20,000 nt of DNA from an uncultured virus (IMG/VR IMGVR_UViG_3300049489_000353) (lineage: Duplodnaviria; Heunggongvirae; Uroviricota; Caudoviricetes): the IMG/VR virus record IMGVR_UViG_3300049489_000353. One strand, written 5' to 3'. Below the pieces are notes generated by a model. The model ran no database searches. It was not told where the DNA came from and was given only the letters and a program-made list of their open reading frames with translations. The position numbers and the translations under genes were made by a program. Below are positions 1,748-18,973 of the stretch, one piece after another. How positions within the stretch are numbered: position 1 is the first letter of the stretch; each line of letters begins with the position of its first letter.

Positions 1748-1877
1748 TTGTTGACTCGTAAAATTCTATGGTATACTAAAACCCAGATAGACGAAGATGC
1801 TCTTTAAAAAGCCTACGGAAAATACCTCTTGCATGGGCAAGATTTTCTGCTAGACTGTGCCCAGACGCCTATAAATA
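1748..1877 (+). promoter_or_regulatory. stacked promoters upstream of leader ORF and tRNA array
   Basis: TTGACT(1751)...TGgTATACT(1772-1777); TTGCAT(1829)-16 nt-TAGACT(1851) with TG extension; late box TATAAATA 1870-1877. Confidence 0.6.
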
Positions 1878-1911: not shown

Positions 1912-2040
1912 ATGACGAACACCCTCAACATCCTGAGCAAGCGCGAGCAGAAGTGGCTATCCCAGCCATTATCGAGCCGCCCCGTCATGGCTCGCCATAA
2001 TCTCTTTAATATCACCGATATTACGGAGAGTCCAGGCTAG
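1912..2040 (+). CDS. 42-aa putative attenuator leader peptide (MTNTLNILSKREQKWLSQPLSSRPVMARHNLFNITDITESPG)
   Basis: ATG 1912 to TAG 2038-2040; lies between the promoters and a terminator; codons match the array anticodons; last codons overlap the antiterminator arm. No strong Shine-Dalgarno. Confidence 0.75.
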   Translation: MTNTLNILSKREQKWLSQPLSSRPVMARHNLFNITDITESPG

Positions 2041-2078
2041 AGAACAGGAGAAATCCTAAACCCTCTCGAACCCTGGAC
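2030..2078 (+). promoter_or_regulatory. putative antiterminator hairpin
   Basis: GTCCAGG(2030-2036) pairs with CCTGGAC(2072-2078); inner AGAG/CTCT and AGGA-GAAA-TCCT tetraloop hairpin. Confidence 0.7.
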
Positions 2079-2104
2079 CCAAAAAGTCCAGGGTTCTTTC
2101 TTTT
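2068..2104 (+). terminator. intrinsic terminator (attenuator) before the tRNA array
   Basis: GAACCCTGGAC-CCAAAAA-GTCCAGGGTTC 11-bp stem followed by TTTCTTTT. Confidence 0.85.
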
Positions 2105-2208
2105 ACAACTACATATCTGTGGAAAACACAACAATTCCCGTGAAATGCACGGTAAGCCACCGTAGACCGCTACGGCACGGTAAGTCTAAAACACGGGAGT
2201 TGTGGTTT

Positions 2209-2296
2209 GGAAGGCAAAACGAACAGGGTCCGTCGTTCTTTGCTAAAGAAATGGGGCGCTCTTGCGCCTGTGGTTCAAGTCCACTACCTTCCGCCA
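2209..2296 (+). tRNA. tRNA-Ser(GCT)
   Basis: GGAAGG/CCTTCC acceptor, GCT anticodon, long variable arm, TTCAAGT loop, GCCA end. Confidence 0.85.
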
Positions 2297-2390
2297 GAAA
2301 GTCTAGCTGCTATTCCCGAGGCAGGACGAATAGACTAAAATTCACGAAGCTCTGATGTCTCGTCAATATCATCTTCGTGGTCGGGAGTAT

Positions 2391-2480
2391 GGAACAGAGA
2401 AGCATCGGGGAGATGCGTTCGCTTGGAAAGCGAAAGGGCGGTGCAAATCGCCAGAGTTTCGATTACTCCTTGTTCCGCCA
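2391..2480 (+). tRNA. tRNA-Ser(GGA)
   Basis: GGAACA/TGTTCC acceptor, TTCGC-TTGGAAA-GCGAA, long variable arm, GCCA. Confidence 0.85.
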
Positions 2481-2645
2481 GAGAGTGGCAAATCGGATGC
2501 AAACGCCGAGTGCAGGCAACCCAAAAGGTGAGGCACTAGTCTATGTAGTAAGACCCACTCGTTACCAGAGCCGGTGACAAGCATAACCAACTGCTTCTTT
2601 TCCCCCATATGGGAAATGTAGTTTGATCTAAAATGCCGGCAGTAT

Positions 2646-2720
2646 GCCCGTGTCGTATATGTGGTAATACGCGAGCCTGAAGAGTTCGATCAACCGATTC
2701 AAACGCGGTCGCGGGCACCA
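2646..2720 (+). tRNA. tRNA-Phe(GAA), atypical T arm
   Basis: GCCCGTG/CGCGGGC, CGAGC-CTGAAGA-GTTCG, ACCA. Confidence 0.8.
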
Positions 2721-2832
2721 AAGGTAGATTGTAGGTATGCTTCCCGATTAGGTATGCAACCTTCTAGGCGACTCTGGAGCCTCTCACTTTGAGTGAGTCT
2801 CATCGCAGGATGGGGAATAAACTGGAGGGTAT

Positions 2833-2925
2833 GCAGCCGTTCGCGTAGTCCGGTCGAACGCACCTGACTCTTAATCAGGATGGGTTACTCCCACATCGTA
2901 GGTTCAAATCCTACTGGCTGCACCA
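2833..2925 (+). tRNA. tRNA-Lys(CTT) with long variable arm
   Basis: GCAGCCG/TGGCTGC, CCTGA-CTCTTAA-TCAGG, extra hairpin TGGG-TTACT-CCCA, ACCA. Confidence 0.85.
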
Positions 2926-2928
2926 AAA

Positions 2929-3005
2929 TTCGCCTGCTCGTACAACGGCAGTATATTCCACGGTCGATGGAAAGAAGGCGGGGTTCGACTCCCCGGCTGG
3001 GCGAA
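2929..3005 (+). pseudogene. degenerate tRNA-Asp(GTC)-like
   Basis: TTCCA-CGGTCGA-TGGAA arm with G33 instead of U33, good T arm CGGGG-TTCGACT-CCCCG, bulged acceptor, no CCA. Confidence 0.55.
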
Positions 3006-3011
3006 TCGTAT

Positions 3012-3088
3012 GGGTTGCAAGCATAAATGGAAGGATGCAATCGCCTCTTAAGCGATAGAGCAGGGTTCGAATCCCTGGCGACCCACCA
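3012..3088 (+). tRNA. tRNA-Lys(CTT)
   Basis: GGGTTGC/GCGACCC, ATCGC-CTCTTAA-GCGAT, ACCA. Confidence 0.9.
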
Positions 3089-3179
3089 AAAAGCGCGAAT
3101 TGACTTGACAACGCTACGGTAATCCGAGTCGCTTTAGCGGGTGACTACGATGCACGGTCGGTGTTCGCGCCGGTTTTAT

Positions 3180-3259
3180 AGCGGGTTCGTATACTAGGTG
3201 TTTACGCTCGTCTGTTAAACGAGATAAGGTTTTGGGTTCGAATCCCCCGCCCGCTGCCA
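3180..3259 (+). tRNA. tRNA-Asn(GTT)
   Basis: AGCGGGT/GCCCGCT, CTCGT-CTGTTAA-ACGAG, GCCA; weak T stem. Confidence 0.8.
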
Positions 3260-3320
3260 AACTTGATTAAAAATTATTTCAACTTGTGTTATAATATAAA
3301 TACGAGTAAGGGAATAAAAT

Positions 3321-3854
3321 ATGTCAAGATTATCAGATAATGTAAAAGCATGGAGACGGAATAACAAGTTAAAAATTATAGAAGCAATGGGTGGTAAATG
3401 TGTATGTTGTGGATACCACAAATCTACATTCGCTTTAAGTTTACATCACATAGATCCAAATGAAAAGGATATATCTTTTAACCGAATTAGGGCTAATCCA
3501 ATTGCTTGGAAAAAAATAGTTGTGGAATTAAGAAAGTGCGTGCTTGTTTGCTCAAACTGTCATATGGAAATACATGAAGGTATAACAAATATTCCTAATG
3601 ATGCACCTAAATTTAATGAAGATTACTATACGGTTAAAGAAAAGGAAGATAAGTGTCCAGTGTGTCAGAAAAATAAAAGCATATATAGATTAACATGCTC
3701 ACGCACATGTGCAAGAAAATTATCATGGAAAACAAATTGGGAAAATATAAATCTGAAAAAAGAATTAGAGACTAAAAGTATAACTCAATTAGCAGATGAG
3801 TTAAACATATCTGATTCAGCTATTCATAAAAGATTGAAGAAATATCATTCCTAG
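3321..3854 (+). CDS. HNH homing endonuclease with C-terminal Zn-finger and HTH
   Basis: GGKCVCCGY...LSLHHIDP...CVLVCSNCHMEIH; CPVC...CSRTC; AT-rich insert with its own TGtTATAAT and TATAAATA (3295-3302). Confidence 0.85.
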   Translation: MSRLSDNVKAWRRNNKLKIIEAMGGKCVCCGYHKSTFALSLHHIDPNEKDISFNRIRANPIAWKKIVVELRKCVLVCSNCHMEIHEGITNIPNDAPKFNEDYYTVKEKEDKCPVCQKNKSIYRLTCSRTCARKLSWKTNWENINLKKELETKSITQLADELNISDSAIHKRLKKYHS

Positions 3855-3938
3855 GCAACATGACAGGACATGTACCGTGCTGTTAACACGGAGCGAGCGA
3901 AAGCCGATAAGGGGGTTCGAGTCCCTCCCTAGGAGCCA
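3849..3938 (+). tRNA. tRNA-Asn(GTT) with long variable arm
   Basis: TCCTAGG/CCTAGGA, CCGTG-CTGTTAA-CACGG, ~19-nt variable region with GC-GAAA-GC, GCCA. Confidence 0.85.
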
Positions 3939-3941
3939 CAT

Positions 3942-4018
3942 GACACATTAGCTCAATTGGATAGAGCAATAGACTACGGATCTATAGGTTGTAGGTTCAA
4001 CTCCTACATGTGTCGCCA
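3942..4018 (+). tRNA. tRNA-Arg(ACG)
   Basis: Canonical cloverleaf, ATAGA-CTACGGA-TCTAT, GCCA. Confidence 0.92.
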
Positions 4019-4021
4019 GTA

Positions 4022-4142
4022 AGGTTGTTTTCAGCAAATTAAATCCAAAACTAACTGATAATTAGAAGGTCTTGGTTCGAATCCAAGCTCGCCTTAAGCA
4101 AGCGATGTAGTGTAACGGCAGCACAAAATAAGGAACAACCTG
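4022..4142 (+). ncRNA. scaffold family A copy 1, carrying a permuted tRNA-Ile(GAT)-like domain
   Basis: AGGTTGTT-TTCAGCAA...AACAACCT-G closes, in order, an anticodon hairpin (GAT), T arm, looped acceptor and D arm. Confidence 0.7.
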
Positions 4143-4169
4143 TAACGCCCCAACGCTAAAGGGGCACAT

Positions 4170-4243
4170 GCCCGGTTCATCTAATGGAAGGATCCAACGC
4201 TACGAACGTTGGCATTTAGGTTCGAATCCTAAGCTGGGTGCCA
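4170..4243 (+). tRNA. tRNA-Arg(ACG)
   Basis: GCCCGGT/GCTGGGT, CAACG-CTACGAA-CGTTG, GCCA. Confidence 0.88.
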
Positions 4244-4245
4244 AA

Positions 4246-4324
4246 CATCGGAAGTTGCTGGTTTAAGTCCAGCCTAGAAGGCGAAAGCATTCTAAGTAGT
4301 TTTAAATGGATAAAATATCCGCTG
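4246..4324 (+). ncRNA. circularly permuted tRNA-like RNA (YrlA-like topology)
   Basis: CGGA/TCCG closing stem; GCTGG-TTTAAGT-CCAGC T arm; TAGAA/TTCTA acceptor capped by GC-GAAA-GC; GTTTT-AAATGGAT-AAAAT D arm. Confidence 0.6.
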
Positions 4325-4329
4325 CGTAT

Positions 4330-4405
4330 GGTGATATTGATGTAGTGGCAGCATCATCGGTTTGTGACTCCGAAAGTGACGGTTCGATTCCGTCATACCA
4401 CCCCA
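4330..4405 (+). tRNA. tRNA-His(GTG)
   Basis: G-1, TTGTGAC loop, GACGG-TTCGATT-CCGTC, CCCA end. Confidence 0.82.
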
Positions 4406-4541
4406 CATGAGCATGTACTAGTCTTGCTCTAGGAATGACTATTGCCTATATGCGCCAGGAGTGCGCGAGAAAGAAAGTCAGGCTTGGCAACCTAATGAAA
4501 GCGCGGATTAATTACCCGTTGCTCAACAAGTGGCTTGTTAT

Positions 4542-4627
4542 GGTGGGTGAAGTCCAACGGCAGGACAACAGATTGTGGCTCTGTGCTAGAAATAGCCTTG
4601 CGGGTTCGAATCCCGTCATCCACCCCA
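4542..4627 (+). tRNA. tRNA-His(GTG) with long variable arm
   Basis: G-1, ACAGA-TTGTGGC-TCTGT, extra hairpin GCTA-GAAA-TAGC, CCCA end. Confidence 0.87.
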
Positions 4628-4633
4628 TTTTCA

Positions 4634-4750
4634 AGGTTGGTTACAGCAATTCAAACGGTATAAACGACGCTCCTTCGGGATAGTTGCGAGAGTGGTTCAA
4701 CTCCGCTCGATCATACACGAAAAAAGTAAGTGTATGGAATACCCAACCTG
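4634..4750 (+). ncRNA. scaffold family A copy 2, carrying a T arm and hairpins
   Basis: AGGTTGG-TTACAGCAA...CCAACCT-G; internal TCC-TTCG-GGA, GAGTGG-TTCAACT-CCGCTC, CATACAC/GTGTATG. Confidence 0.65.
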
Positions 4751-4760
4751 TCTTTTTTCA

Positions 4761-4877
4761 AGGATGCCTACAGCAATTCAAAGCACACATACTAAGCCGT
4801 AGGTCACGAAGTTCGAATCTTCGTCGCAGCAACCATGCTGCGTAGCTCAGTGGTAGAGCAACGAAAAGTGCATCCTG
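4761..4877 (+). ncRNA. scaffold family A copy 3, carrying a permuted tRNA (3' half-CCA fused to 5' half)
   Basis: AGGATGC-CTACAGCAA...GCATCCT-G; T arm, CGCAGCA-ACCA-TGCTGCG, then TAGCTCAGTGGTAGAGCA. Confidence 0.75.
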
Positions 4878-4888
4878 TTTTTTTTTAT

Positions 4889-4974
4889 GCGCGAGTGGTG
4901 GAACGGCAGACACACTACCTTGAGGTGGTAGCGGGAGCAATCCCGTGAAGGTTCGAATCCTTTTTCGCGCACCA
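4889..4974 (+). tRNA. tRNA-Leu(GAG)
   Basis: Canonical class II cloverleaf, CTACC-TTGAGGT-GGTAG, ACCA. Confidence 0.93.
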
Positions 4975-4981
4975 TTTTCAT

Positions 4982-5058
4982 CTAGCCGTGGGATAGCAGT
5001 TTCTGTCCACTAGTCTTGGGAACTAGGGGTGCTGGTGCGACTCCAGCCGGTTAGACCA
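4982..5058 (+). tRNA. tRNA-Pro(TGG)
   Basis: CTAGCCG/CGGTTAG, CTAGT-CTTGGGA-ACTAG, ACCA. Confidence 0.85.
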
Positions 5059-5064
5059 AACAAT

Positions 5065-5179
5065 GGGGAGTTCCAACGGTGGTACGCTACCTATTGCCGT
5101 AGAGTAGCAACAGGGTGGAGAGAGGCGGCAAACCTTACCACGCCTGATTAGTCGGTTCGATTCCGACGCTCCCGACCCA
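5065..5179 (+). ncRNA. tRNA-like RNA with acceptor and T arm but non-tRNA centre
   Basis: GGGAGT/GCTCCC stem, GTCGG-TTCGATT-CCGAC, centre of GCTAC/GTAGC and CAGG-GTGG/CCAC-CCTG hairpins. Confidence 0.5.
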
Positions 5180-5184
5180 TTCAT

Positions 5185-5259
5185 GCTCGCATCTTCCATG
5201 TATTAGGAAACCCGATTCTCAATCGGATAAACAGAGTGAAAGTCTCTGTGCGAGTACCA
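5185..5259 (+). tRNA. tRNA-Glu(CTC), atypical T loop
   Basis: GCTCGCA/TGCGAGT, CCGA-TTCTCAA-TCGG, CAGAG-TGAAAGT-CTCTG, ACCA. Confidence 0.78.
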
Positions 5260-5302
5260 AAAGCAATGTAACGATTGAATCAATTTTTTTATAAATAAAG
5301 GT

Positions 5303-5680
5303 ATGACACAAGACAAAAGTAGCGAATCGGATAAACTTTTGCCTACATCGGTCCCTCCTATTGAAGAGATAGCTCATAGGACGGGAAGAATACCTAAAGG
5401 ATATGTTTGCCCATCGTGTGGTCATCTTGCCGTGGATGAGGACGAGTTGCTTGGTTTAACTTGTCCAAAATGCCTACAACAGTGGTTGGTTGATCAGCAA
5501 GTATCACAGATGGTGTCCATAAAGGAGATGGCAACAGATCGGGACAGCGCCTTAATGAAAACAGTAAAGGTAGGCAATGAACCGATGGGCAAACATCCTT
5601 ATGATGAAACGACGAAGATTGTGGCTGAAAAAGAGAAGAAAAAGAAAACCGAATCCGACGATAGGATTCCTGGTTTGTAA
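5303..5680 (+). CDS. zinc-ribbon hypothetical protein inside the tRNA array
   Basis: CPSCG...CPKC pairs; TATAAATA at 5290-5297 directly upstream. Confidence 0.7.
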   Translation: MTQDKSSESDKLLPTSVPPIEEIAHRTGRIPKGYVCPSCGHLAVDEDELLGLTCPKCLQQWLVDQQVSQMVSIKEMATDRDSALMKTVKVGNEPMGKHPYDETTKIVAEKEKKKKTESDDRIPGL

Positions 5681-5681
5681 T

Positions 5682-5758
5682 GTCCTTGTGATGGAATTGG
5701 CATACATACTACGCTTAGAACGTAGGTCTTGTGGGTTCGACTCCCACCGAGGATACCA
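5682..5758 (+). tRNA. tRNA-Leu(TAG), short variable loop
   Basis: Leu-type D loop GGAATTGGCATAC, CTACG-CTTAGAA-CGTAG, ACCA. Confidence 0.9.
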
Positions 5759-5761
5759 AAT

Positions 5762-5836
5762 GCGCGACTAGTTTAGTGGTCTAAACACTTGATTGACATT
5801 CAAGAGATTCTGGTCCGATTCCAGGGTCGCGTACCA
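5762..5836 (+). tRNA. tRNA-Val(GAC)
   Basis: GCGCGAC/GTCGCGT, CTTGA-TTGACAT-TCAAG, ACCA. Confidence 0.87.
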
Positions 5837-5840
5837 ATTA

Positions 5841-5895
5841 AGGTTGCTTCCAGCAAATTAAAAAATTACTATGTTAAGTAAAAAACAGCAACCTG
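5841..5895 (+). ncRNA. scaffold family A copy 4 (minimal), single hairpin cargo
   Basis: AGGTTGCT-TCCAGCAA...AGCAACCT-G around TTAC-TATGTTAA-GTAA. Confidence 0.65.
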
Positions 5896-5900
5896 TTTAT

Positions 5901-5972
5901 GGGGAACTAGTCCGAGAACAGCTAGGTCATCGAAACCTAGAAAGAATGGGTCAGCACCATGAGTCCCCGCCA
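5901..5972 (+). tRNA. atypical tRNA-Arg(TCG)
   Basis: GGGGA/TCCCC, CTAGGT-CATCGAA-ACCTAG, reduced D arm, non-consensus T loop, GCCA. Confidence 0.55.
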
Positions 5973-5976
5973 ATTT

Positions 5977-6053
5977 GGGTGTATAGTGTAGAAGTTTCTG
6001 CACACTTGATTGTCAATCACGAAGTATGGGAGCGTTACCCATTACACCCGCCA
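5977..6053 (+). tRNA. tRNA-Asp(GTC), atypical T loop
   Basis: GGGTGTA/TACACCC, TTGTCAA loop, GCCA. Confidence 0.8.
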
Positions 6054-6056
6054 GAT

Positions 6057-6132
6057 GGCTCCATCGTATAGTGGATTATTACGTTTCCCTGTCACGGAAA
6101 AAATGCGAGTTCGATTCTCGCTGGAGTCGCCA
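6057..6132 (+). tRNA. tRNA-Asp(GTC)
   Basis: GGCTCCA/TGGAGTC, TTTCC-CTGTCAC-GGAAA, GCCA. Confidence 0.92.
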
Positions 6133-6225
6133 AAAAGTGGTGTGCGCCACTCATCGCCGCACAGCGATGTTAAAGCAATGAGTAAAGGCTTTATAGACAC
6201 TCAGCTTGGAATCTAAAGTTTCCAT

Positions 6226-6297
6226 CGGGTGATAGTTAAGAGGTTATAACGCCAGTCATTAGACTGGAATCATCGGTTCGAATCCGGTTCATCCACC
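6226..6297 (+). pseudogene. tRNA body with shortened anticodon loop (undetermined isotype)
   Basis: Intact D and T arms; CCAGT-CATTAG-ACTGG has a 6-nt loop; ends ACC without full CCA. Confidence 0.6.
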
Positions 6298-6301
6298 TTT
6301 T

Positions 6302-6376
6302 GGGGACATAGTTCAGTGAGAGAACAATCGCTTCGCACGCGATAGACTTCGGGTTTGATTCCCAATGTCTCCACCA
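6302..6376 (+). tRNA. tRNA-Ala(CGC)
   Basis: G3:U70, ATCGC-TTCGCAC-GCGAT, ACCA. Confidence 0.85.
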
Positions 6377-6377
6377 A

Positions 6378-6479
6378 ATAAGCGAATGGAAATCCTACCG
6401 AAGTTCCAGACTTTGAATCTGGCTAAACGGGTAGCGTAAAAAGCGCGGCATACAGCAGGAGTAGGTCCGAGTAGCTTAT
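6378..6479 (+). ncRNA. scaffold family B copy 1, carrying a Gln(TTG) anticodon stem-loop
   Basis: ATAAGC-GAATGGAAATCCTAC...GTAGGTCCGAGTA-GCTTAT enclosing CCAGA-CTTTGAA-TCTGG. Confidence 0.6.
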
Positions 6480-6483
6480 ATAT

Positions 6484-6570
6484 GGAAAGTTAATCACTCA
6501 AGGAGTGACTTCGTTTCGAAAACGAATGGGCGGCATCGCCGCTATGGTGCGAGTCCATAACTTTCCGCCA
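6484..6570 (+). tRNA. tRNA-Ser(CGA)
   Basis: GGAAAGT/ACTTTCC, TTCGT-TTCGAAA-ACGAA, long variable arm, GCCA. Confidence 0.85.
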
Positions 6571-6574
6571 ACAC

Positions 6575-6648
6575 TGGATCTTGATGTAAGGGCTGCATAA
6601 CTGACTCTGAATCAGTTCGTGGAGGTTCGAATCCTCCAGATCCAACCA
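6575..6648 (+). tRNA. tRNA-Gln(CTG)
   Basis: TGGATCT/AGATCCA, ACTGA-CTCTGAA-TCAGT, ACCA. Confidence 0.9.
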
Positions 6649-6651
6649 TAT

Positions 6652-6725
6652 GGGGCAATCGTATATCGGTAATACACTAGCATGGCATGCTTGAAAGCAG
6701 GGTTCGATTCCCTGTTGCTCCACCA
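6652..6725 (+). tRNA. tRNA-Ala(GGC)
   Basis: G3:U70, AGC-ATGGCAT-GCT, ACCA. Confidence 0.9.
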
Positions 6726-6726
6726 G

Positions 6727-6886
6727 TTCAGTAAAATGGGAATCCTATCCGTGCTATGTCCAAAGTAGCATGCTAGTGGTTTGACTCCACAACGCCCGCC
6801 AATGGGCGTAAATGGCAACCGAGTTGCTGGTAGACTAAACAAGTCGCTCAAGTTGAATTGAGAGAAGTAGGTCCAAAGTAACTGAA
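6727..6886 (+). ncRNA. scaffold family B copy 2, carrying a permuted tRNA-Trp(CCA)-like domain
   Basis: TTCAGT-AAAATGGGAATCCTA...AGTAGGTCCAAAGTA-ACTGAA enclosing an anticodon-like hairpin, T arm and ACGCCC-GCCAAT-GGGCGT. Confidence 0.6.
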
Positions 6887-6891
6887 TATAT

Positions 6892-6965
6892 GCTGAATTC
6901 GGATAGTGGGAATCCGCTCGTTTCGTAATCGAGATACGGTTGTTCGATTCAACCATTCAGCACCA
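6892..6965 (+). tRNA. tRNA-Thr(CGT)
   Basis: GCTGAAT/ATTCAGC, TTCGTAA loop, ACCA. Confidence 0.88.
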
Positions 6966-6970
6966 TATGC

Positions 6971-7044
6971 GCTGCTTTCGGATAATGGCATTCCGCCTGC
7001 TTGGTATGCAGGATACGCTAGTTCGATTCTAGCAAGCAGCACCA
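6971..7044 (+). tRNA. tRNA-Thr(GGT)
   Basis: GCTGCTT/AAGCAGC, CCTGC-TTGGTAT-GCAGG, ACCA. Confidence 0.9.
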
Positions 7045-7048
7045 TCAT

Positions 7049-7122
7049 ACGTAGATCGTACAATGGCAGTACCTCAGATTCCAAACCTGATGATGTGGGT
7101 TCGATTCCTACTCTACGTGCCA
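7049..7122 (+). tRNA. tRNA-Trp(CCA)
   Basis: ACGTAGA/TCTACGT, TTCCAAA loop, GCCA. Confidence 0.88.
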
Positions 7123-7332
7123 GAGCAGTTGCTGAAATGACATGAAAAACTCATCGTAGGCAATTGATAACGCGGCTAACCGCAGTCTAACACCGCTATA
7201 CAATAAAGTTAAACGCCATCCTCGTAGGAGGACGCGGACTGCACCATCTTTAAGTGCCTTAAAAGCAGCTTCGGAAACGAAGAGCAGATTATCAACCTTG
7301 GTTCCTGCTAAAACAAAACAAGGTCCATTCAT

Positions 7333-7409
7333 GGTCACATAGCTCAGTACGGCAGAGCATTCGTCTGATACACGAAAGGTCGAAGGTTCCATTCCTTCTG
7401 TGACTACCA
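7333..7409 (+). tRNA. tRNA-Ile(GAT)
   Basis: GGTCACA/TGTGACT, TTCGT-CTGATAC-ACGAA, ACCA. Confidence 0.9.
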
Positions 7410-7412
7410 TAC

Positions 7413-7490
7413 GGACATCAGCTTCGCCGGTTGCGGAGGTTCGCCTGATAAGCGAAATTAGCATAGGTTCAACTCCTTGGGTGTCCACCA
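7413..7490 (+). tRNA. tRNA-Ile(GAT)
   Basis: GGACATC/GGTGTCC, TTCGC-CTGATAA-GCGAA, ACCA. Confidence 0.82.
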
Positions 7491-7491
7491 A

Positions 7492-7628
7492 GTAGCAATC
7501 GTCTAAACATAAAGACACTTCAAGGGGAAATAAAAAGCCTAACTATGTGGGTTGAAGTCCCACGATTAAGTTCCCAGGACGGGTAGTTATCTTGAAGATG
7601 AATGTGGCTTATGTAGCCGTCTTGCTAC
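7492..7628 (+). ncRNA. tRNA-like RNA with a 66-nt structured insert replacing the anticodon loop
   Basis: GTAGCAA/TTGCTAC acceptor, GTCT/AGAC D stem, CTTCAAG/CTTGAAG stem around the insert. Confidence 0.55.
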
Positions 7629-7636
7629 ATTTTCAT

Positions 7637-7711
7637 ATCTGTGTGGGATAGTGGTCTGTCCACTTGTTTTGGGAACAAGGGGTGTTGGTTCGATTCCAAC
7701 CATGGATACCA
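7637..7711 (+). tRNA. tRNA-Pro(TGG)
   Basis: ATCTGTG/CATGGAT, CTTGT-TTTGGGA-ACAAG, ACCA. Confidence 0.83.
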
Positions 7712-7825
7712 AGTCGTTAGTCCTGAAATAAAACTTACGGTTAAAAACCAAACAGTTCCGGTCTGTTAGTTCACAGTCAGAGTCGAGAAACTAACCGCTG
7801 CGCCGAGCGTTCTGACAGGCGTTAT

Positions 7826-7899
7826 CAGGCATTAGGATAATGGTAATCCACTAGCTTCGGGAGCTAGGGACGGCAGTTCGATTCTGCCATGCTTGACCA
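7826..7899 (+). tRNA. tRNA-Pro(CGG)
   Basis: CAGGCAT/ATGCTTG, CTAGC-TTCGGGA-GCTAG, ACCA. Confidence 0.9.
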
Positions 7900-7904
7900 G
7901 TTAT

Positions 7905-7979
7905 CGTGGTGACGTTCAATGGATGGACGGCTGTTTCATAAGCAGCTTCAAGTAGGTTCGATTCCTATCGCCACGACCA
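7905..7979 (+). tRNA. tRNA-Met(CAT), elongator type (Ile2 not excluded)
   Basis: CGTGGTG/CGCCACG, GCTGT-TTCATAA-GCAGC, ACCA; lacks the three G-C pairs of initiator tRNA. Confidence 0.85.
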
Positions 7980-7980
7980 T

Positions 7981-8298
7981 GAGTAAATCAGACAATCGCT
8001 AGAGGACTCCAAACTCTAGAGGAAAGTCGGGGCACCAAACAAAAATCTACTGGTTAACGACCAGCACACTTTTCAGTAGGTGTGAGGAAAGGGCAGTAAG
8101 AAATAAACCGCCGATGGCTTCGCAAGAAGATCAGGTAAGGGTTGAAAATTCGGCTTAAGAAACCGGACTTCTCATAGCGATATGAGTCGAGTGTAACCCC
8201 TAGATGGTGCAAGGCAGTAATTGCCGCTTGAGGTCAGCAGTAATGCTGATCCTAGACAAATGATTGTCCTAGACAGAACCCCGCTTACCGATTTACTT
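7981..8298 (+). ncRNA. rnpB: RNase P RNA (bacterial type)
   Basis: GAGTAAATC/GATTTACTT P1; GAGGAAAGTCGGGGC and ACAGAACCCCGCTTA (P4); GACAATCG/TGATTGTC; GGTGCAAGG and GCAGTAATGC hallmarks. Confidence 0.93.
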
Positions 8299-8370
8299 TA
8301 CTGATTTTTTATGCTATAATGGTTTACCGTATCTTATACTTTGCCGTATAAATACAATTAGGAGATCATT

Positions 8371-8898
8371 ATGGCAAAACCTCGTACATTTACCGATGAA
8401 CAATTTATAGATGTCGTTAAAAATTCTTATTCGATACGAGAATGTCTACGAAAATTAAAGCTTAAAACTACTGGTGGTAATTATAAGTCTTTTTATTGGA
8501 GAGTTAAAAAAATGGGCATTAAAACTGACCATTTCGTGGGACAGTCTCATATGAAAGGTAAGAAAAATCCATCTCATATTCAGATACCTCTCTCTGATAT
8601 ATTAAAAGAAAATGTATTTTATCAAAGTCATAGATTAAAATTAAGATTGATAAAAGTTGGATTGAAAGAACATAAATGTGAAATTTGTCGCAATACGGAG
8701 TGGAATGGGGCGGCTATTCCTCTTGAATTGGATCATAAAAATGGTGTACATACCGACAATAGAATAGAAAATATACAATTAATATGTCCAAATTGTCATG
8801 CTTTAACTCCAACATATCGGAGTAAGAATATAGGTAAACATAATGTGTCCGTAGCGCAATCGGCAGGAGGCGATAGTTTTAAAAACTATACAGTGTGA
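8371..8898 (+). CDS. HNH homing endonuclease
   Basis: CEIC...LELDHKNGVHTDNRIENIQLICPNCH; AGGAG RBS; TATAAATA 8347-8354 and TGcTATAAT upstream. Confidence 0.9.
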   Translation: MAKPRTFTDEQFIDVVKNSYSIRECLRKLKLKTTGGNYKSFYWRVKKMGIKTDHFVGQSHMKGKKNPSHIQIPLSDILKENVFYQSHRLKLRLIKVGLKEHKCEICRNTEWNGAAIPLELDHKNGVHTDNRIENIQLICPNCHALTPTYRSKNIGKHNVSVAQSAGGDSFKNYTV

Positions 8899-8922
8899 GT
8901 TCGAATCTCACCGGGCACACCA
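8845..8922 (+). tRNA. tRNA-Leu(TAA), short variable loop
   Basis: GTGTCCG/CGGGCAC, ATAGT-TTTAAAA-ACTAT, ACCA. Confidence 0.87.
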
Positions 8923-8928
8923 TTTCAT

Positions 8929-9004
8929 GGGCGTTTAGTTCAGCGGCTAGAATGTCGCTTTCACATAGCGAAGATCGTTGGTTCGATTCCAACAACGCCT
9001 ACCA
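8929..9004 (+). tRNA. tRNA-Val(CAC)
   Basis: GGGCGTT/AACGCCT, TCGCT-TTCACAT-AGCGA, ACCA. Confidence 0.92.
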
Positions 9005-9148
9005 GGGGACTTGGATTAAGATGGAAAATCAACCTAGTTGGGGCGGTAAACGCAACAAAGACAGGTGCCATAAAAGGAGCTTACAAGCTGCTACCGCGAG
9101 GGTGTGGTGACATAAGCTATGTCGGTTCGAATCCGATAGTCTCCACCA
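9005..9148 (+). ncRNA. Ala-identity tRNA-like RNA with ~90-nt expanded centre
   Basis: GGGGACT/AGTCTCC-ACCA with G3:U70, GATT/AATC D stem, GTCGG-TTCGAAT-CCGAT T arm; no canonical anticodon arm. Confidence 0.65.
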
Positions 9149-9153
9149 TTCAC

Positions 9154-9232
9154 GGGGTTGTAGCAGAATTGGCAAATGCGGTATGCTCAAACCATACGAC
9201 TTATGTGGGTTCGAATCCCACCAGCCCTACCA
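9154..9232 (+). tRNA. tRNA-Leu(CAA), short variable loop
   Basis: GGGGTTG/CAGCCCT, GTATG-CTCAAAC-CATAC, ACCA. Confidence 0.9.
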
Positions 9233-9373
9233 AATGATCCACTGGCGCAAGCCCAGCGGGGGACATCCACAAAATATTCGCCAGTAACGAATACTACGGA
9301 GAGTCCGCTGCCGTGCCGTGTAAGGACGGGGATCGTTATCAAACCACGTTGTGTTTTCCACAGATGCCCTCAT

Positions 9374-9450
9374 GTGTCTGTAGCCCAATCGGCAGAGGCG
9401 TTGCTCTCAGAAAGCAAATGATGGTGGTTCGAATCCACTCAGGCACACCA
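9374..9450 (+). tRNA. tRNA-Leu(CAG), short variable loop
   Basis: GTGTCTG/CAGGCAC, TTGCT-CTCAGAA-AGCAA, ACCA. Confidence 0.9.
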
Positions 9451-9454
9451 ACAT

Positions 9455-9529
9455 GCCGCTATCGTTCAACGGATAGGACAAGACCCTCCGAAGGTCAAAA
9501 TCTAGGTTCAATTCCTAGTAGCGGTGCCA
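9455..9529 (+). tRNA. tRNA-Arg(CCG)
   Basis: GCCGCTA/TAGCGGT, GACC-CTCCGAA-GGTC, GCCA. Confidence 0.9.
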
Positions 9530-9546
9530 TCTGTTATACTATATGT

Positions 9547-9930
9547 ATGATGCTTGTCCCGACCTATGTTGACAAGTCGCTTATACATGGGCTTGGAATG
9601 TTCACCACCAACGCTATTAAAAAAGGTGAAGTTATTTGGAGATTTATTCCTGGCTTTGACCAGCGGTTTACAGCAGCCGAATATTCGGCTTTACCGGAGC
9701 TTGCCAGAAACTATCTCGACACATACGCATGGACCAGTAAGAAAAGCGGCTTGTTAGTTATGTCCATGGATAACGACAAGTTTGTTAATCACTCCGATAG
9801 CCCCAATACATTATCAGAATACCGTGACGATGAATCAGAAGTCATAACCGTTGCTTTGCGCGACATCGAAGCTGGAGAAGAATTGACCGATAATTACCGT
9901 AGCTTTGAGGCATCTGAAAATTTGTTTTGA
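9547..9930 (+). CDS. SET-domain protein (putative lysine methyltransferase)
   Basis: IHGLGMF...IKKGEVI, FVNHSDSPNT, ALRDIEAGEELTDNY; start moved to 9547 because the longer ORF runs through tRNAs. Confidence 0.9.
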   Translation: MMLVPTYVDKSLIHGLGMFTTNAIKKGEVIWRFIPGFDQRFTAAEYSALPELARNYLDTYAWTSKKSGLLVMSMDNDKFVNHSDSPNTLSEYRDDESEVITVALRDIEAGEELTDNYRSFEASENLF

Positions 9931-10038: not shown

Positions 10039-10371
10039 ATGCCAGTTTTAAAGCCAAAACTCAAGATGTTCATCGTCCTCCGATGGGATCTGTCGGCTGA
10101 TGCTGCCGTGGTCGCGGCTGCCCATGCTTCGTTGGGGACTTACTTGACTTTTATAGATAGTCCGCTCATGCAAGAGTGGCAAAAGACATCCTTCATCAAG
10201 AAGCTCTGTCAAGCGACAGATTTCAACCACTTCCAGCACTTGAAGTCGCTTGGAAGACACCGTGTTTTCACAGAATCATCACTGAATAATTCAGAAGTTT
10301 CTATTGGCTTCGACATAGTGCCGCCGCCATATCATGTTTTTGATGAAATACCTTTATGGAGAAATAAATAA
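10039..10371 (+). CDS. peptidyl-tRNA hydrolase 2 (Pth2)-like protein
   Basis: KMFIVLRWDL...AAAHAS...W...KKL pattern of the PTH2 family. Confidence 0.7.
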   Translation: MPVLKPKLKMFIVLRWDLSADAAVVAAAHASLGTYLTFIDSPLMQEWQKTSFIKKLCQATDFNHFQHLKSLGRHRVFTESSLNNSEVSIGFDIVPPPYHVFDEIPLWRNK

Positions 10372-16000: not shown

Positions 16001-16024
16001 TATAAATAGTTGTTGGAGATTTAT

Positions 16025-17185: not shown

Positions 17186-17524
17186 ATGAGCATCTTTCTC
17201 GCCATATGTCCCGTATTAGGAAAAGAAGTCCATGTCAGATGGCGCGGTCACGATACCATTGATGCCGCTTCTAAGGAAATGGCTTCGTTGCGAAAGCTTC
17301 TATTGGGTCAAGGTAAGAAACCATATGATTGCTACATTTATGAAGCCGAGGCTCCACCGTGGGGTTTGAAGGCGCATGAATTAGATGACGTAGACATGAA
17401 CTTCTACGAAGAATCAGCACCAGCAGATATCGAGCAGACCAAGAAAGTCTTGGATAAAGCCATCTATGAAGTTGGTGTGCTAGCCGAAGCCGAACGCAAA
17501 GGTGAATTTAAGGACAACAAGTAA
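17186..17524 (+). CDS. hypothetical protein
   Basis: AGGAG RBS, operon packing. Confidence 0.78.
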   Translation: MSIFLAICPVLGKEVHVRWRGHDTIDAASKEMASLRKLLLGQGKKPYDCYIYEAEAPPWGLKAHELDDVDMNFYEESAPADIEQTKKVLDKAIYEVGVLAEAERKGEFKDNK

Positions 17525-18054
17525 TGCTACAAGCAACGAATTATCTCAACGGAAAAGTCGCGTACCTGTGTGGACCAATCCATGCCGTAGCCGATGATGG
17601 GGTTGGTTGGCGCGATGCCATTACCCCACGCTTAAAGAATTTTGGGATCATCGTTGATGATCCCTGTAAAAAGACAGTAAACGGGATGGGTGAAGTAAAA
17701 GACGATAAAAAGATGCTTATTGAATTGATGAAAACTGGTGATTTCGGTCAAGTAAAAAAGAAATTCTATCCAATCGTCCGAAAGGACTTACGAGCCGTAG
17801 ATAAAGCAGACTTTTTAATCGTCGTGTATGACCCAACCATTCATATCTTTGGTACGATACATGAAATGATCATCGCTAGCCAGCAAAGAAAACCAATACT
17901 TCTATTTTTCGATAAGGCGAAGATAGATAAATTCAACCCATGGTGTTTGACACTTGTAAAAGAAAACATGATTTTCACCGAATGGGATGATATGTTCGCA
18001 TATCTCAATAAGATTGATTTAGGCGAATTCGACACAAGTTACTGGACACTCTAA
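17524..18054 (+). CDS. nucleoside 2-deoxyribosyltransferase/N-hydrolase-like protein
   Basis: AYLCGPI...WR...DP...DLRAVDKADFLIV...GTIHE...KPI. Confidence 0.78.
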   Translation: MLQATNYLNGKVAYLCGPIHAVADDGVGWRDAITPRLKNFGIIVDDPCKKTVNGMGEVKDDKKMLIELMKTGDFGQVKKKFYPIVRKDLRAVDKADFLIVVYDPTIHIFGTIHEMIIASQQRKPILLFFDKAKIDKFNPWCLTLVKENMIFTEWDDMFAYLNKIDLGEFDTSYWTL

Positions 18055-18063
18055 AGGAACCCT

Positions 18064-18258
18064 ATGACAAAGAAACTTTCAAAAAAAGAGCTGTGGGAAA
18101 TTAAGTTAAGAAACTATAATTTCTTTGCGGCTTGGTTTAAAGATATTCAAGACGAATTTCTTGCAGAGGCTAGGAAAGCAAAGTGCAAGTTCGACCATCC
18201 AAAAGATATCCCGCTGATGATGGCGGGTATTAAGAAAACCACCAAAGGAAACCCATGA
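18064..18258 (+). CDS. hypothetical protein
   Basis: AAGGA RBS, ATGA overlap with the next gene. Confidence 0.7.
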   Translation: MTKKLSKKELWEIKLRNYNFFAAWFKDIQDEFLAEARKAKCKFDHPKDIPLMMAGIKKTTKGNP

Positions 18259-18446
18259 AACTCAAGACAACCAAAAACCTCACAGTTGAAGTTACACCAG
18301 AGGAAATTCTATCACTTCTCACACGCCTCGTTGAGAAGAAATCTGGTAAGAAAGTAAGTCATGCTGGTGTATCTACCGATGGTACATATGTACTTGAACT
18401 TGTGCCAGAAGAAGAAGTCACCAACCTTGACGAACCAAAAGCTTAA
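18255..18446 (+). CDS. hypothetical protein
   Basis: AAGGA RBS, operon packing. Confidence 0.72.
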   Translation: MKLKTTKNLTVEVTPEEILSLLTRLVEKKSGKKVSHAGVSTDGTYVLELVPEEEVTNLDEPKA

Positions 18447-18454
18447 GGAGCGTT

Positions 18455-18973
18455 ATGAATTACCTCAAAGGCAAAACAGTTTATCTCTGTGGAGCGATGT
18501 CTGCTGTTGCTGATGACGGTAAACAGTGGCGCGAATATGTTACGAGCCTTTTAAAGCAAAAGGGTGTTCATGTTTTAGATCCAACGAGAAAGAAGTCTCG
18601 GTGTGCATCTGAAATAGATGAAAACAAAGAGTTGTTTAGAAAATTAGTCAAAGAACAAAATTTCGAACAGCTTGCTGATGTGTTTGCGCCCGTAGCCAGG
18701 TGGGATTTACGAAGCGTCGATAAGGCGGATTTTTTAATCGTCAATTATGATCCATCGGTACATACAGTCGGTACTATCGATGAGATTGTCGTTGCAAACT
18801 TCGAACGAAAACCTATCCTTGTGCGCTATGATCCGGCGCAGCTTGACAAGTTCAATCCTTGGCTCGTTGTGCGAATTAAACCAAAACATTTATTCCCATC
18901 GTGGAGCAAGCTTTTCGAACATTTAGATGTTGTAGATAGCGGAACCTTCGACCGAAGCCTCTGGACAATATAA
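18455..18973 (+). CDS. nucleoside 2-deoxyribosyltransferase/N-hydrolase-like protein (paralog)
   Basis: VYLCGAM...WR...DP...DLRSVDKADFLIV...GTIDE...KPI. Confidence 0.78.
   Translation: MNYLKGKTVYLCGAMSAVADDGKQWREYVTSLLKQKGVHVLDPTRKKSRCASEIDENKELFRKLVKEQNFEQLADVFAPVARWDLRSVDKADFLIVNYDPSVHTVGTIDEIVVANFERKPILVRYDPAQLDKFNPWLVVRIKPKHLFPSWSKLFEHLDVVDSGTFDRSLWTI

Follow-up and report, generated by a model that had tools for sequence, protein, structure and literature searches.

In the enterobacterial attenuators trpL, hisL, leuL, thrL, ilvL and pheL, a short open reading frame (ORF) lies between the promoter and the controlled genes, the 5' arm of the terminator can pair with a strand located at the leader stop codon, and a hairpin is found just before that strand. 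In the trp attenuator the terminator is more stable than the antiterminator, and the switch is kinetic. The pheM leader attenuates pheST, an operon of the translation apparatus, and senses one transfer RNA (tRNA), that for Phe, by means of a codon run. T-box riboswitches likewise respond to tRNA status by forming either an antiterminator or a terminator upstream of translation-related genes, but in them the tRNA is bound directly and no translation is involved; their marks are a conserved T-box sequence and a Stem I specifier. The general mechanism of leader-peptide attenuation in amino acid operons is outlined in PMC1183508, and rnTrpL of Sinorhizobium is described in PMC6614838 as a small RNA derived from an attenuator. 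Here we analyze a locus of the same general design at positions 1751-2104 of a 20,000-nt stretch of DNA from an uncultured tailed phage (IMG/VR IMGVR_UViG_3300049489_000353), referred to below as the window.

The locus lies between promoter-like sites and a large tRNA array, and we interpret it, tentatively and with somewhat less than even confidence, as a leader-ORF (trp-type, ribosome-mediated) transcription attenuator of that array. This interpretation is carried in silico by the parts themselves, their mutually exclusive pairings, the recurrence of the arrangement in a distantly related contig and the biased codon use of the ORF. The ORF, the 11-bp terminator, the complementarity between GTCCAGG and CCTGGAC and the small AGGA-GAAA-TCCT hairpin, all described in an earlier sequence-only reading of the window, were recovered at the same positions. 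The features are as follows:

1751-1777, plus strand: promoter-like site P1, read by eye (TTGACT at 1751-1756, a 15-nt spacer with terminal TGn, TATACT at 1772-1777)
1829-1856, plus strand: weaker promoter-like site P2, read by eye (TTGCAT at 1829-1834, a 16-nt spacer with terminal TGn, TAGACT at 1851-1856)
1870-1877, plus strand: late-promoter-type motif TATAAATA
1912-2040, plus strand: leader ORF of 42 codons, with an ATG start and its stop codon at 2038-2040
2001-2029, plus strand: ORF-terminal hairpin of 5 + 7 pairs, directly 5' of the antiterminator strand (from folds)
2030-2036, plus strand: 5' strand of the antiterminator, GTCCAGG, ending 1 nt before the stop codon
2047-2058, plus strand: small hairpin AGGA-GAAA-TCCT, inside the antiterminator loop (from folds)
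2068-2104, plus strand: intrinsic terminator, with a stem-loop at 2068-2096 (11 bp, 7 of them G-C; 7-nt loop) and a T-tract at 2097-2104
2391-9529, plus strand: tRNA array with 33 confident genes (ARAGORN, default settings), two HNH ORFs and a ribonuclease P (RNase P) RNA

A short ORF followed by a terminator upstream of tRNA genes recurs, with the same layout and a changed sequence, in a distant relative (G001), a 331,849-bp IMG/VR contig estimated to be 92% complete that encodes, elsewhere in its genome, a homologue (46% identical) of a 334-amino-acid protein of the window:

L051:3525-3552: promoter-like site (10 of 12 consensus positions)
L051:3567-3716: leader ORF of 49 codons, with an ATG start
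L051:3745-3773: terminator of 12 pairs
L051, from 3816: tRNA genes Ser(TGA), Ser(GGA), Tyr and Phe

The order leader, Ser-like tRNA, Ser(GGA), gap, Phe is common to both phages. At the nucleotide level the two leaders share the terminator, its downstream flank TTTACAA.TA.ATATCTG.GG and GGAGAGTCCA, which is coding in the window ORF and lies 3' of the stop codon in G001. With respect to G001, 2 of the 11 terminator pairs are maintained through changes on both sides, and an RNAalifold consensus of the two leaders kept the terminator alone with confidence. A terminator separates the leader ORF from the tRNA genes in both phages, and in the window TTTCTTTT stands directly 3' of the hairpin. Over the window as a whole, 39 terminator-like sites were counted, versus 16.3 expected from shuffles.

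The strand GTCCAGG (2030-2036) is complementary to CCTGGAC (2072-2078), the loop-proximal part of the terminator 5' arm, and in the minimum free energy (MFE) folds of transcripts ending at 2080 or 2086 the two form 7 pairs. Cut transcripts of G001 yielded an equivalent antiterminator of 8 pairs (~3716-3724 with 3749-3756, CCCCAGG with CCTGGGG), whose 5' strand abuts the stop codon at 3714-3716 and in which two pairs differ from those of the window on both sides. Once the 3' arm was added, the terminator fold was obtained in both phages (-75.8 versus -59.7 kcal/mol in the window, -63.2 versus -50.0 kcal/mol in G001). The two conformers foreseen in the sequence-only reading were thus reproduced, the antiterminator in truncated transcripts and the terminator in full ones. 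In both phages the loop-proximal 5' arm is sequestered, its partner strand lies at the stop codon and a strong hairpin occupies the last ORF codons just 5' of it; the predicted hairpin at 2001-2029, which has a counterpart at the matching ORF-terminal position in folds of G001, is possibly a pause hairpin. Among dinucleotide shuffles, a stacked run as long as that observed arose in 13/1000 cases for the window and 49/1000 for G001, and one whose partner also lay no more than 15 nt from the stop codon arose in 3/1000 and 10/1000, respectively.

No promoter-like site was seen, by eye or by a consensus scan, between the terminator and the first tRNA of the window or in the 35-nt gap of G001, so that the tRNAs seem to need terminator read-through. 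According to the proposed mechanism, transcripts from early-type and late-type promoters would run through the 42-codon ORF, and GUCCAGG in its last codons would pair with 2072-2078 as soon as these were made, giving the antiterminator and letting the polymerase continue into the tRNA genes. A ribosome at the stop codon (2038-2040) would instead cover GUCCAGG, as geometry predicts for a footprint of the size usually assumed, and the 11-bp terminator would form, ending the transcript at ~2100. Given such masking, read-through should rise with slow or absent translation of the leader and fall when decoding is fast, a negative feedback on tRNA supply. We infer that the ORF is translated, that the position of the ribosome decides the fold and that a codon bias toward array-readable codons tunes the sensor; through the predicted switch, tRNA output probably follows ribosome decoding. 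A link to host anticodon nucleases is pure conjecture.

The leader ORF precedes the tRNA genes in both phages, with 42 codons here and 49 in G001. In dinucleotide shuffles (20000 for each phage), an ATG-initiated ORF of at least 40 codons was found in 3.9% (window) and 4.1% (G001), and one whose stop codon also fell 15 to 40 nt before the stem in 1.98% and 1.87%, respectively. Since this amounts to ~2% in each case, and the sequences are too diverged to share a frame, two such ORFs are unlikely to be accidental. The stop codon is separated from the terminator stem by 27 nt here and 28 nt in G001. In PMC4824070, a terminator located a few bp after a translated gene is described as repressed, its efficiency growing with distance, which would fit the idea that the conserved gap of 27 to 28 nt matters.

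Two close variants of the peptide are present among JGI proteins: P0003, with 43 amino acids and 93% identity, and P0002, with 42 amino acids and 88% identity. No other relative was found among 1.84 billion protein representatives, and no family in Pfam; a 3667-amino-acid candidate (P0001) was discarded as an artefact, its 15 repeats each matching weakly. At the DNA level, contigs of a close variant (X2), aligned at 80% likeness, provided a view independent of ORF calling, with 1940-1959 uncovered. Between 1861 and 2061 they differ from the window by 1909 C>T, 2023 A>G, 2024 C>G, a TCC insertion after 2011, an AC insertion in the stop codon and a T after 2045. The AC insertion changes TAG into TAA and retains the stop, while the TCC insertion widens the loop of the hairpin at 2001-2029. 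Nine indels were listed on the stretch; the single one in the ORF proper is 3 nt long, and the other eight are of 1 or 2 nt. By comparison, 15 substitutions and 3 single-base indels were found in 1757-1860, with 7 substitutions in the P1 spacer and its flanks, all four promoter hexamers and TATAAATA being unchanged. To judge from these alignments, a leader that is nearly unchanged while promoter spacers vary, and an ORF indel of 3 nt, would support the attenuator interpretation. The X2 terminator is changed on both sides at stem positions 1, 3 and 11 (read by eye, at a loose contig end), which supports the terminator helix. Another contig, X4, is only 82% alike over 1928-1966 and diverges upstream.

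The lengths of the ORF (42 to 43 amino acids in three close variants and 49 in G001), its unequal G+C contents at the first, second and third codon positions (GC1 0.46, GC2 0.41, GC3 0.71) and the 3-nt indel could also be those of a conventional phage protein gene, small and fast-evolving, that has promoters and a terminator of its own; the tRNAs would then be transcribed by leakage or from unrecognized promoters. Yet BLASTP of the window and G001 peptides gave no alignment, and the substitutions among the variants are radical ones (two of L to Q, one of Q to K and one of T to G), as is the rewriting of the C terminus from ESPG to ERSR, so that the peptide itself does not appear to be conserved. 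Furthermore, the GC3 of 0.71 contrasts with 0.38 for window genes, no Shine-Dalgarno sequence or family was found and no relative beyond the two variants, and the complementarity of the antiterminator at the stop codon in both phages would be left unexplained. We therefore hold a plain protein gene to be improbable.

Part of what is conserved is indifferent to the reading frame. Besides GGAGAGTCCA, a second motif follows the terminator:

2113-2122, plus strand: conserved motif ATATCTGTGG, 3' of the terminator and 5' of the first tRNA, with no difference in X2 or X4

Its G001 counterpart is ATATCTGCGG (L051:3791-3800). The shared form, ATATCTGYGG, stands in variable surroundings and could be a processing site or an unrecognized promoter element. 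Conservation of these two motifs regardless of frame, the conserved alternative between antiterminator and terminator and the weak translation signals would suit a factor-dependent switch, in which one of the two forms is stabilized by a leader-binding factor (a protein of phage or host, or a tRNA), the ORF being uninvolved. However, no riboswitch match was found (for the T-box, none in Rfam at E up to 5 in 1700-2700), the window holds no evident candidate for a binding protein, and the ORF statistics would go unexplained; this is the explanation that we consider least probable, and very much so.

The codons of the leader ORF were compared with those that the array can read. Under standard wobble rules, the 28 anticodons can read 41 sense codons; a strict set was restricted to the 26 confident anticodons (GCT and CGA dropped). 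The array anticodons nearly all begin with G or C (G34/C34), the only U-initial (U34) ones being TGG, TAG and TAA; the array holds CTT, CTC and CTG without TTT, TTC and TTG, and has no Gly, Cys or Tyr tRNA. The readable set approximates to 'not A-ending, and not Gly, Cys or Tyr'. Our recount agreed with the sequence-only reading in that 39 of the 41 elongation codons are readable, with CCC and GGC as exceptions (35 of 41 for the strict set), and in that 23 anticodons are sampled, out of 28 rather than the 29 first counted.

This concordance is statistically real. Against the 22 window genes, in which 65.1% of codons are readable, its probability is 5.8e-6 (1.1e-3 for the strict set), and none of 2648 windows of 41 codons inside those genes reached 39, the maximum being 37. 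Nor was 39 attained in 20000 mononucleotide or 20000 dinucleotide shuffles, or in 20000 redraws in which the peptide was fixed and synonymous codons were drawn from gene usage (maximum, 38); shuffles preserving the composition of each codon position reached it at a rate of 4.5e-4. The only four A-ending codons of the ORF (CTA, CCA twice and TTA) are those read by the three U34 anticodons, and the ORF contains no codon runs.

The same analysis gave a mixed to negative outcome in G001, so that the proposed tracking of array content by leader codons was not borne out there. G001 has 25 tRNA-model matches in all, with 21 distinct anticodons, and its own set reads 33 of the 48 codons of its ORF, with P values of 0.053 (gene baseline, 0.562), 0.066 (synonymous redraw), 0.063 (gene windows) and 0.18 (position-preserving shuffles). 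The adjacent array alone reads 26 of 48 (P 0.14), and 5 Asp, 3 Gln and 2 Thr codons have no tRNA found on the contig. In cross-tests, the G001 ORF fitted the window set (39/48; P 0.0015) better than its own, whereas the window ORF fitted its own set (39/41) better than that of G001 (29/41). Of the codons that distinguish the two sets, the window ORF holds 10 readable by its own set only and none readable by the G001 set only, while the G001 ORF holds 4 readable by its own set only (GTA, TGC, TCA and TAT) and 10 by the window set only. Both leaders are poor in A-ending codons compared with their own genomes, which alone would give much of the match in the window, and in both the GC3 exceeds that of the genes by ~0.3 (0.71 versus 0.38 in the window, 0.52 versus 0.25 in G001), which points to a composition effect. 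Both leaders may shun A-ending codons for another reason, the match in the window being partly a by-product of its G34/C34 array; alternatively, G001 may have lost tRNAs to which its leader was once tuned. Codons cognate to the controlled product, which such attenuators would be expected to carry, number 39 of 41 (P 5.8e-6) in the window and 33 of 48 (P 0.05 to 0.18) in G001.

A simple screen covered 81 tRNA blocks, each preceded by no fewer than 320 nt of sequence, from the window, two G001 loci and 22 of 24 IMG/VR loci holding HNH homologues, some of them near-duplicates. A terminator of at least 7 pairs was present within 320 nt upstream in 10 of the 81, and an ATG-initiated ORF ended just before it in 3, namely, the G001 leader, the 3271 block of L015 (a 23-codon ORF, then an 8-bp terminator ending 156 nt before the tRNA) and L016. 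The last, on an unrelated 149-kb phage contig (4990-5340), has a promoter-like TTGACA, a 37-codon ORF at 5078-5191 and a 14-pair terminator, followed after 15 nt by tRNA-Pro and then by Asn, Asn, Asp, Ala, Tyr, Pro and Tyr. Asn, Asp, Ala, Pro and Tyr are abundant in its ORF, and the 5 array anticodons decode 16 of the 36 codons, versus a baseline of 0.197 (P 6.5e-4; none of 2322 gene windows as high). L016 and the window share a promoter, a short ORF enriched in array-read codons, a terminator and tRNA genes, but their sequences are unrelated, and the window leader matches its array through the choice among synonymous codons. As a means of sensing the tRNA pool, the proposed mirroring of the array by leader codons is strongly significant here, is echoed in L016 and fails in G001, the only true relative; we regard it as doubtful. 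Similarly, it is conceivable, but on balance unlikely, that leader-ORF attenuators built from array-decoded codons are a common gate in front of large phage tRNA arrays, each leader serving as a many-codon probe of decoding capacity.

Several further observations weigh against the attenuator interpretation. The first group concerns initiation on the leader ORF, which in an attenuator should be efficient. Neither a Shine-Dalgarno sequence, whose weakness the sequence-only reading had already admitted, nor a promoter-adjacent (leaderless) start was found for the ATG at 1912. Among 23 other listed ORF starts, AGGAG or GGAG precedes 5, a weaker AGGA-type motif 3 or 4, and TATAAATA lies 1 to 7 nt upstream in 5; unlike these, the leader ORF start has neither a Shine-Dalgarno-type motif nor an adjoining TATAAATA. 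In MFE folds, the start codon is moreover buried in a predicted helix:

1910-1917 CCAUGACG with 1982-1989 CGUCAUGG, plus strand: predicted 8-bp helix pairing the start codon and enclosing two further hairpins

In G001 the ATG overlaps TATAAATA, so that late transcripts, if they start at the spacing typical of T4, probably lack it. The second group concerns the switch. The terminator state is more stable than the antiterminator by ~16 kcal/mol in the window and ~13 kcal/mol in G001, so that any switch must be kinetic; energies and geometry are in this respect those of the trp type. In X2, position 2078 is changed; a matching change is present in the 3' arm and none at 2030, so that 6 antiterminator pairs remain (by eye), which speaks against strict selection on this pairing. 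The third concerns the sample. Only two full DNA examples of the leader are available (the window and G001), and the source of P0002 and P0003 is a protein database, where only intact ORFs can appear, so that their conserved frame is not independent evidence. In Vibrio phage VH7D, no terminator-like site was found between the promoter-like sites and the first tRNA, and in the screen described above an ORF together with a terminator was present in only 3 of the 81 blocks.

The leader fold raises a different explanation. The segment 1885-2104 folds at -76.9 kcal/mol (z -8.92), and 1885-2067, without the terminator, at -54.6 kcal/mol (z -5.84), none of 200 shuffles being as stable; by these predictions the leader is exceptionally structured, as expected of a noncoding RNA. 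Our main rival explanation is accordingly an abundant structured leader or small RNA, 190 to 330 nt long and ending at 2100, whose terminator is constitutively leaky and whose ORF is incidental. Such an RNA could have a role in trans or in processing or stability, polymerases would read into the tRNAs in a constant proportion, and the codon match would result from a G+C-rich composition, poor in A at third positions, meeting a G34/C34 array. It would be in keeping with the pairing, in the MFE fold, of the inferred late-promoter 5' end (1885-1889, from ~1885) with 2063-2067 just 5' of the terminator, and with the position of all variant changes in loops or helix ends of the predicted fold (by eye). 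The 109 covered ORF bases of X2, which show 0 synonymous and 3 amino-acid-changing substitutions (the third inferred from P0003), the better fit of the G001 ORF to the window tRNA set and the missing Shine-Dalgarno sequence also favor it. Nevertheless, the strong fold 5' of the terminator is not common to G001 (z = -1.69), the helix 1885-1889/2063-2067 is lost in X2, and neither the ORFs of at least 40 codons ending 27 to 28 nt before the stem in both phages (~2% per genome) nor the 3-nt ORF indel is explained, while position-preserving shuffles hit 39/41 only at 4.5e-4. Rfam 15 assigned no family to 1885-2104, its only match being to the 29-nt terminator hairpin of Thr_leader (2068-2096; 17.7 bits versus a gathering score of 55; E 1.7), and apart from tRNA-type matches a scan of 1700-2700 gave only chance-level ones. 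We consider this explanation unlikely, yet one to be taken seriously. As with rnTrpL, the terminated leader transcript could itself be a functional structured RNA, which would fit the low folding energy here; unlike for rnTrpL, no target or function in trans can be inferred for the window RNA.

Returning to the attenuator interpretation, the locus departs from the enterobacterial leaders in several respects. It lacks a single-amino-acid codon run, its 41 codons sampling 23 of the 28 array anticodons; it would control phage tRNAs rather than biosynthetic enzymes; it has no Shine-Dalgarno sequence; and it is three times as long as the trpL leader. With pheM it would share the attenuation by a leader peptide of decoding machinery, not of amino acid synthesis, although pheM senses a single tRNA and controls a synthetase instead of tRNA genes. 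No attenuator or leader peptide before phage tRNA genes was described in the material reached by a full-text literature search, a corpus that leaves subscription journals largely outside. As for the sequence-only reading, the anatomy it proposed recurred in the relative and surpassed the shuffle controls, and the concordance in this window held against gene windows and shuffles; the codon mirror was not reproduced in the relative.

Further relatives of the leader were sought by several routes. A blastn search of 1700-2400 against 50,697 phage records gave no match, and exact or degenerate patterns for the terminator, the leader peptide or the terminator plus motif retrieved only G001 from viral_contigs and nothing from metagenome_contigs or genome_contigs, collections that do not contain the window itself. 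The tRNA sequences of the window and G001 are too diverged for search patterns. In G001 (L001), a radical-SAM-like ORF rather than tRNA genes comes after the homologue of the 334-amino-acid protein, and no terminator-like site precedes the second tRNA array of that genome; in VH7D, the homologue is not near the array. The HNH homologues led to many unrelated arrays.

The promoters of the sequence-only reading proved readable by eye as sigma-70-like sites, but neither is listed by the consensus scan; P1 is missed because its spacer is 15 nt, and P2 has 7 of 12 consensus positions. The motif TATAAATA, which we take to be a T4 late-promoter-type consensus, has its G001 counterpart at L051:3560-3567 and lies 5 to 7 nt 5' of the ATG of the ORFs at 729, 5303, 12043 and 14568 and 1 nt 5' of the TTG at 16010. 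This adjacency, together with T4-like late start-site spacing, suggests that late messages driven by TATAAATA are leaderless or nearly so. The four ATG starts preceded by TATAAATA, and the relatives of the 334-amino-acid ORF, which include schizo-T4 phages, indicate by sequence that the source phage is T4-like. That ORF (729-1733) matches 51 Vibrio phages and 1 Salicola phage, schizo-T4 VH7D included, all below 60% identity and at ~28% among the phage matches listed. The window has a G+C content of 42%; its best DNA match is a freshwater sediment metagenome, and its partial matches are freshwater metagenomes. Among the datasets listed as containing the stretch, none was of RNA.

Within the array, estimated at about 36 tRNA genes by the sequence-only reading, default ARAGORN accounted for 33, and relaxed ARAGORN or Rfam added four weaker calls, at 2209-2296 (Ser GCT), 3180-3259 (GTT), 5976-6052 and 6484-6570 (Ser CGA). 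The first of these corresponds to the following feature:

2208-2306, plus strand: first tRNA-like gene, of low confidence (relaxed ARAGORN, Ser GCT at 2209-2296; tRNA-Sec model, 32.6 bits, under the gathering score of 47)

No transfer-messenger RNA was found by ARAGORN. The set is rich in G34/C34, the reverse of the other phage arrays retrieved, which are U34-rich. Several tRNA calls are unusual: those for Lys (2833-2925), Asn (3849-3938) and His (4543-4627) are 93, 90 and 85 nt long, that at 6226-6297 has an 'anticodon' of two bases, and that at 9005-9148 is possibly a Pro(GGG) with an intron. Other features of the array and its surroundings are listed below:

7980-8303, plus strand: full-length bacterial class A RNase P RNA, directly 3' of tRNA-Met 7905-7979 (190 bits versus a gathering score of 100; model positions 1-367 covered)
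3321-3854 and 8371-8898, plus strand: two HNH endonuclease-like ORFs
4798-4865, plus strand: sub-threshold match to the YrlA (Y RNA-like) model (35.4 bits; gathering score, 69)
9313-9930, 10039-10371 and 17524-18973, 3' of the array: a SET-domain ORF (E 2.5e-15), a weak match to PTH2-like peptidyl-tRNA hydrolase just under its cut-off, and two nucleoside 2-deoxyribosyltransferase-like ORFs

An RNase P RNA was not found in G001 or in Vibrio phage VH7D, and none of the entries reached by the literature search reported one carried by a phage. The YrlA model also matched G001 (L053:4761-4888, plus strand; 47.6 bits, likewise sub-threshold), and both matches may be diverged Y-like RNAs or merely their tRNA-like domain. 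Of 24 IMG/VR loci from which relatives of the first HNH ORF were taken, 20 contain tRNA genes, which suggests that these ORFs are homing endonucleases moving along with tRNA arrays.

The reasons for the presence of tRNA genes in phages, and the control of these genes, have been under debate for decades, with codon compensation and escape from tRNA-targeting defenses as competing ideas, the latter being put forward in PMC10264068. If leaders do act as many-codon probes, slow reading for any reason, be it host codon mismatch, starvation or tRNA-cleaving defense nucleases, would switch the phage tRNA set on, and the accumulated phage tRNAs would shut the array off again, the window being a member in which synonymous codon choice encodes the match. 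With a translation-coupled switch before the array, phage tRNA supply would be a regulated, feedback-controlled trait, leader-peptide attenuation would be extended from the sensing of single amino acids to a general probe of decoding, and the locus would constitute a compact 350-nt cassette that reports tRNA availability.

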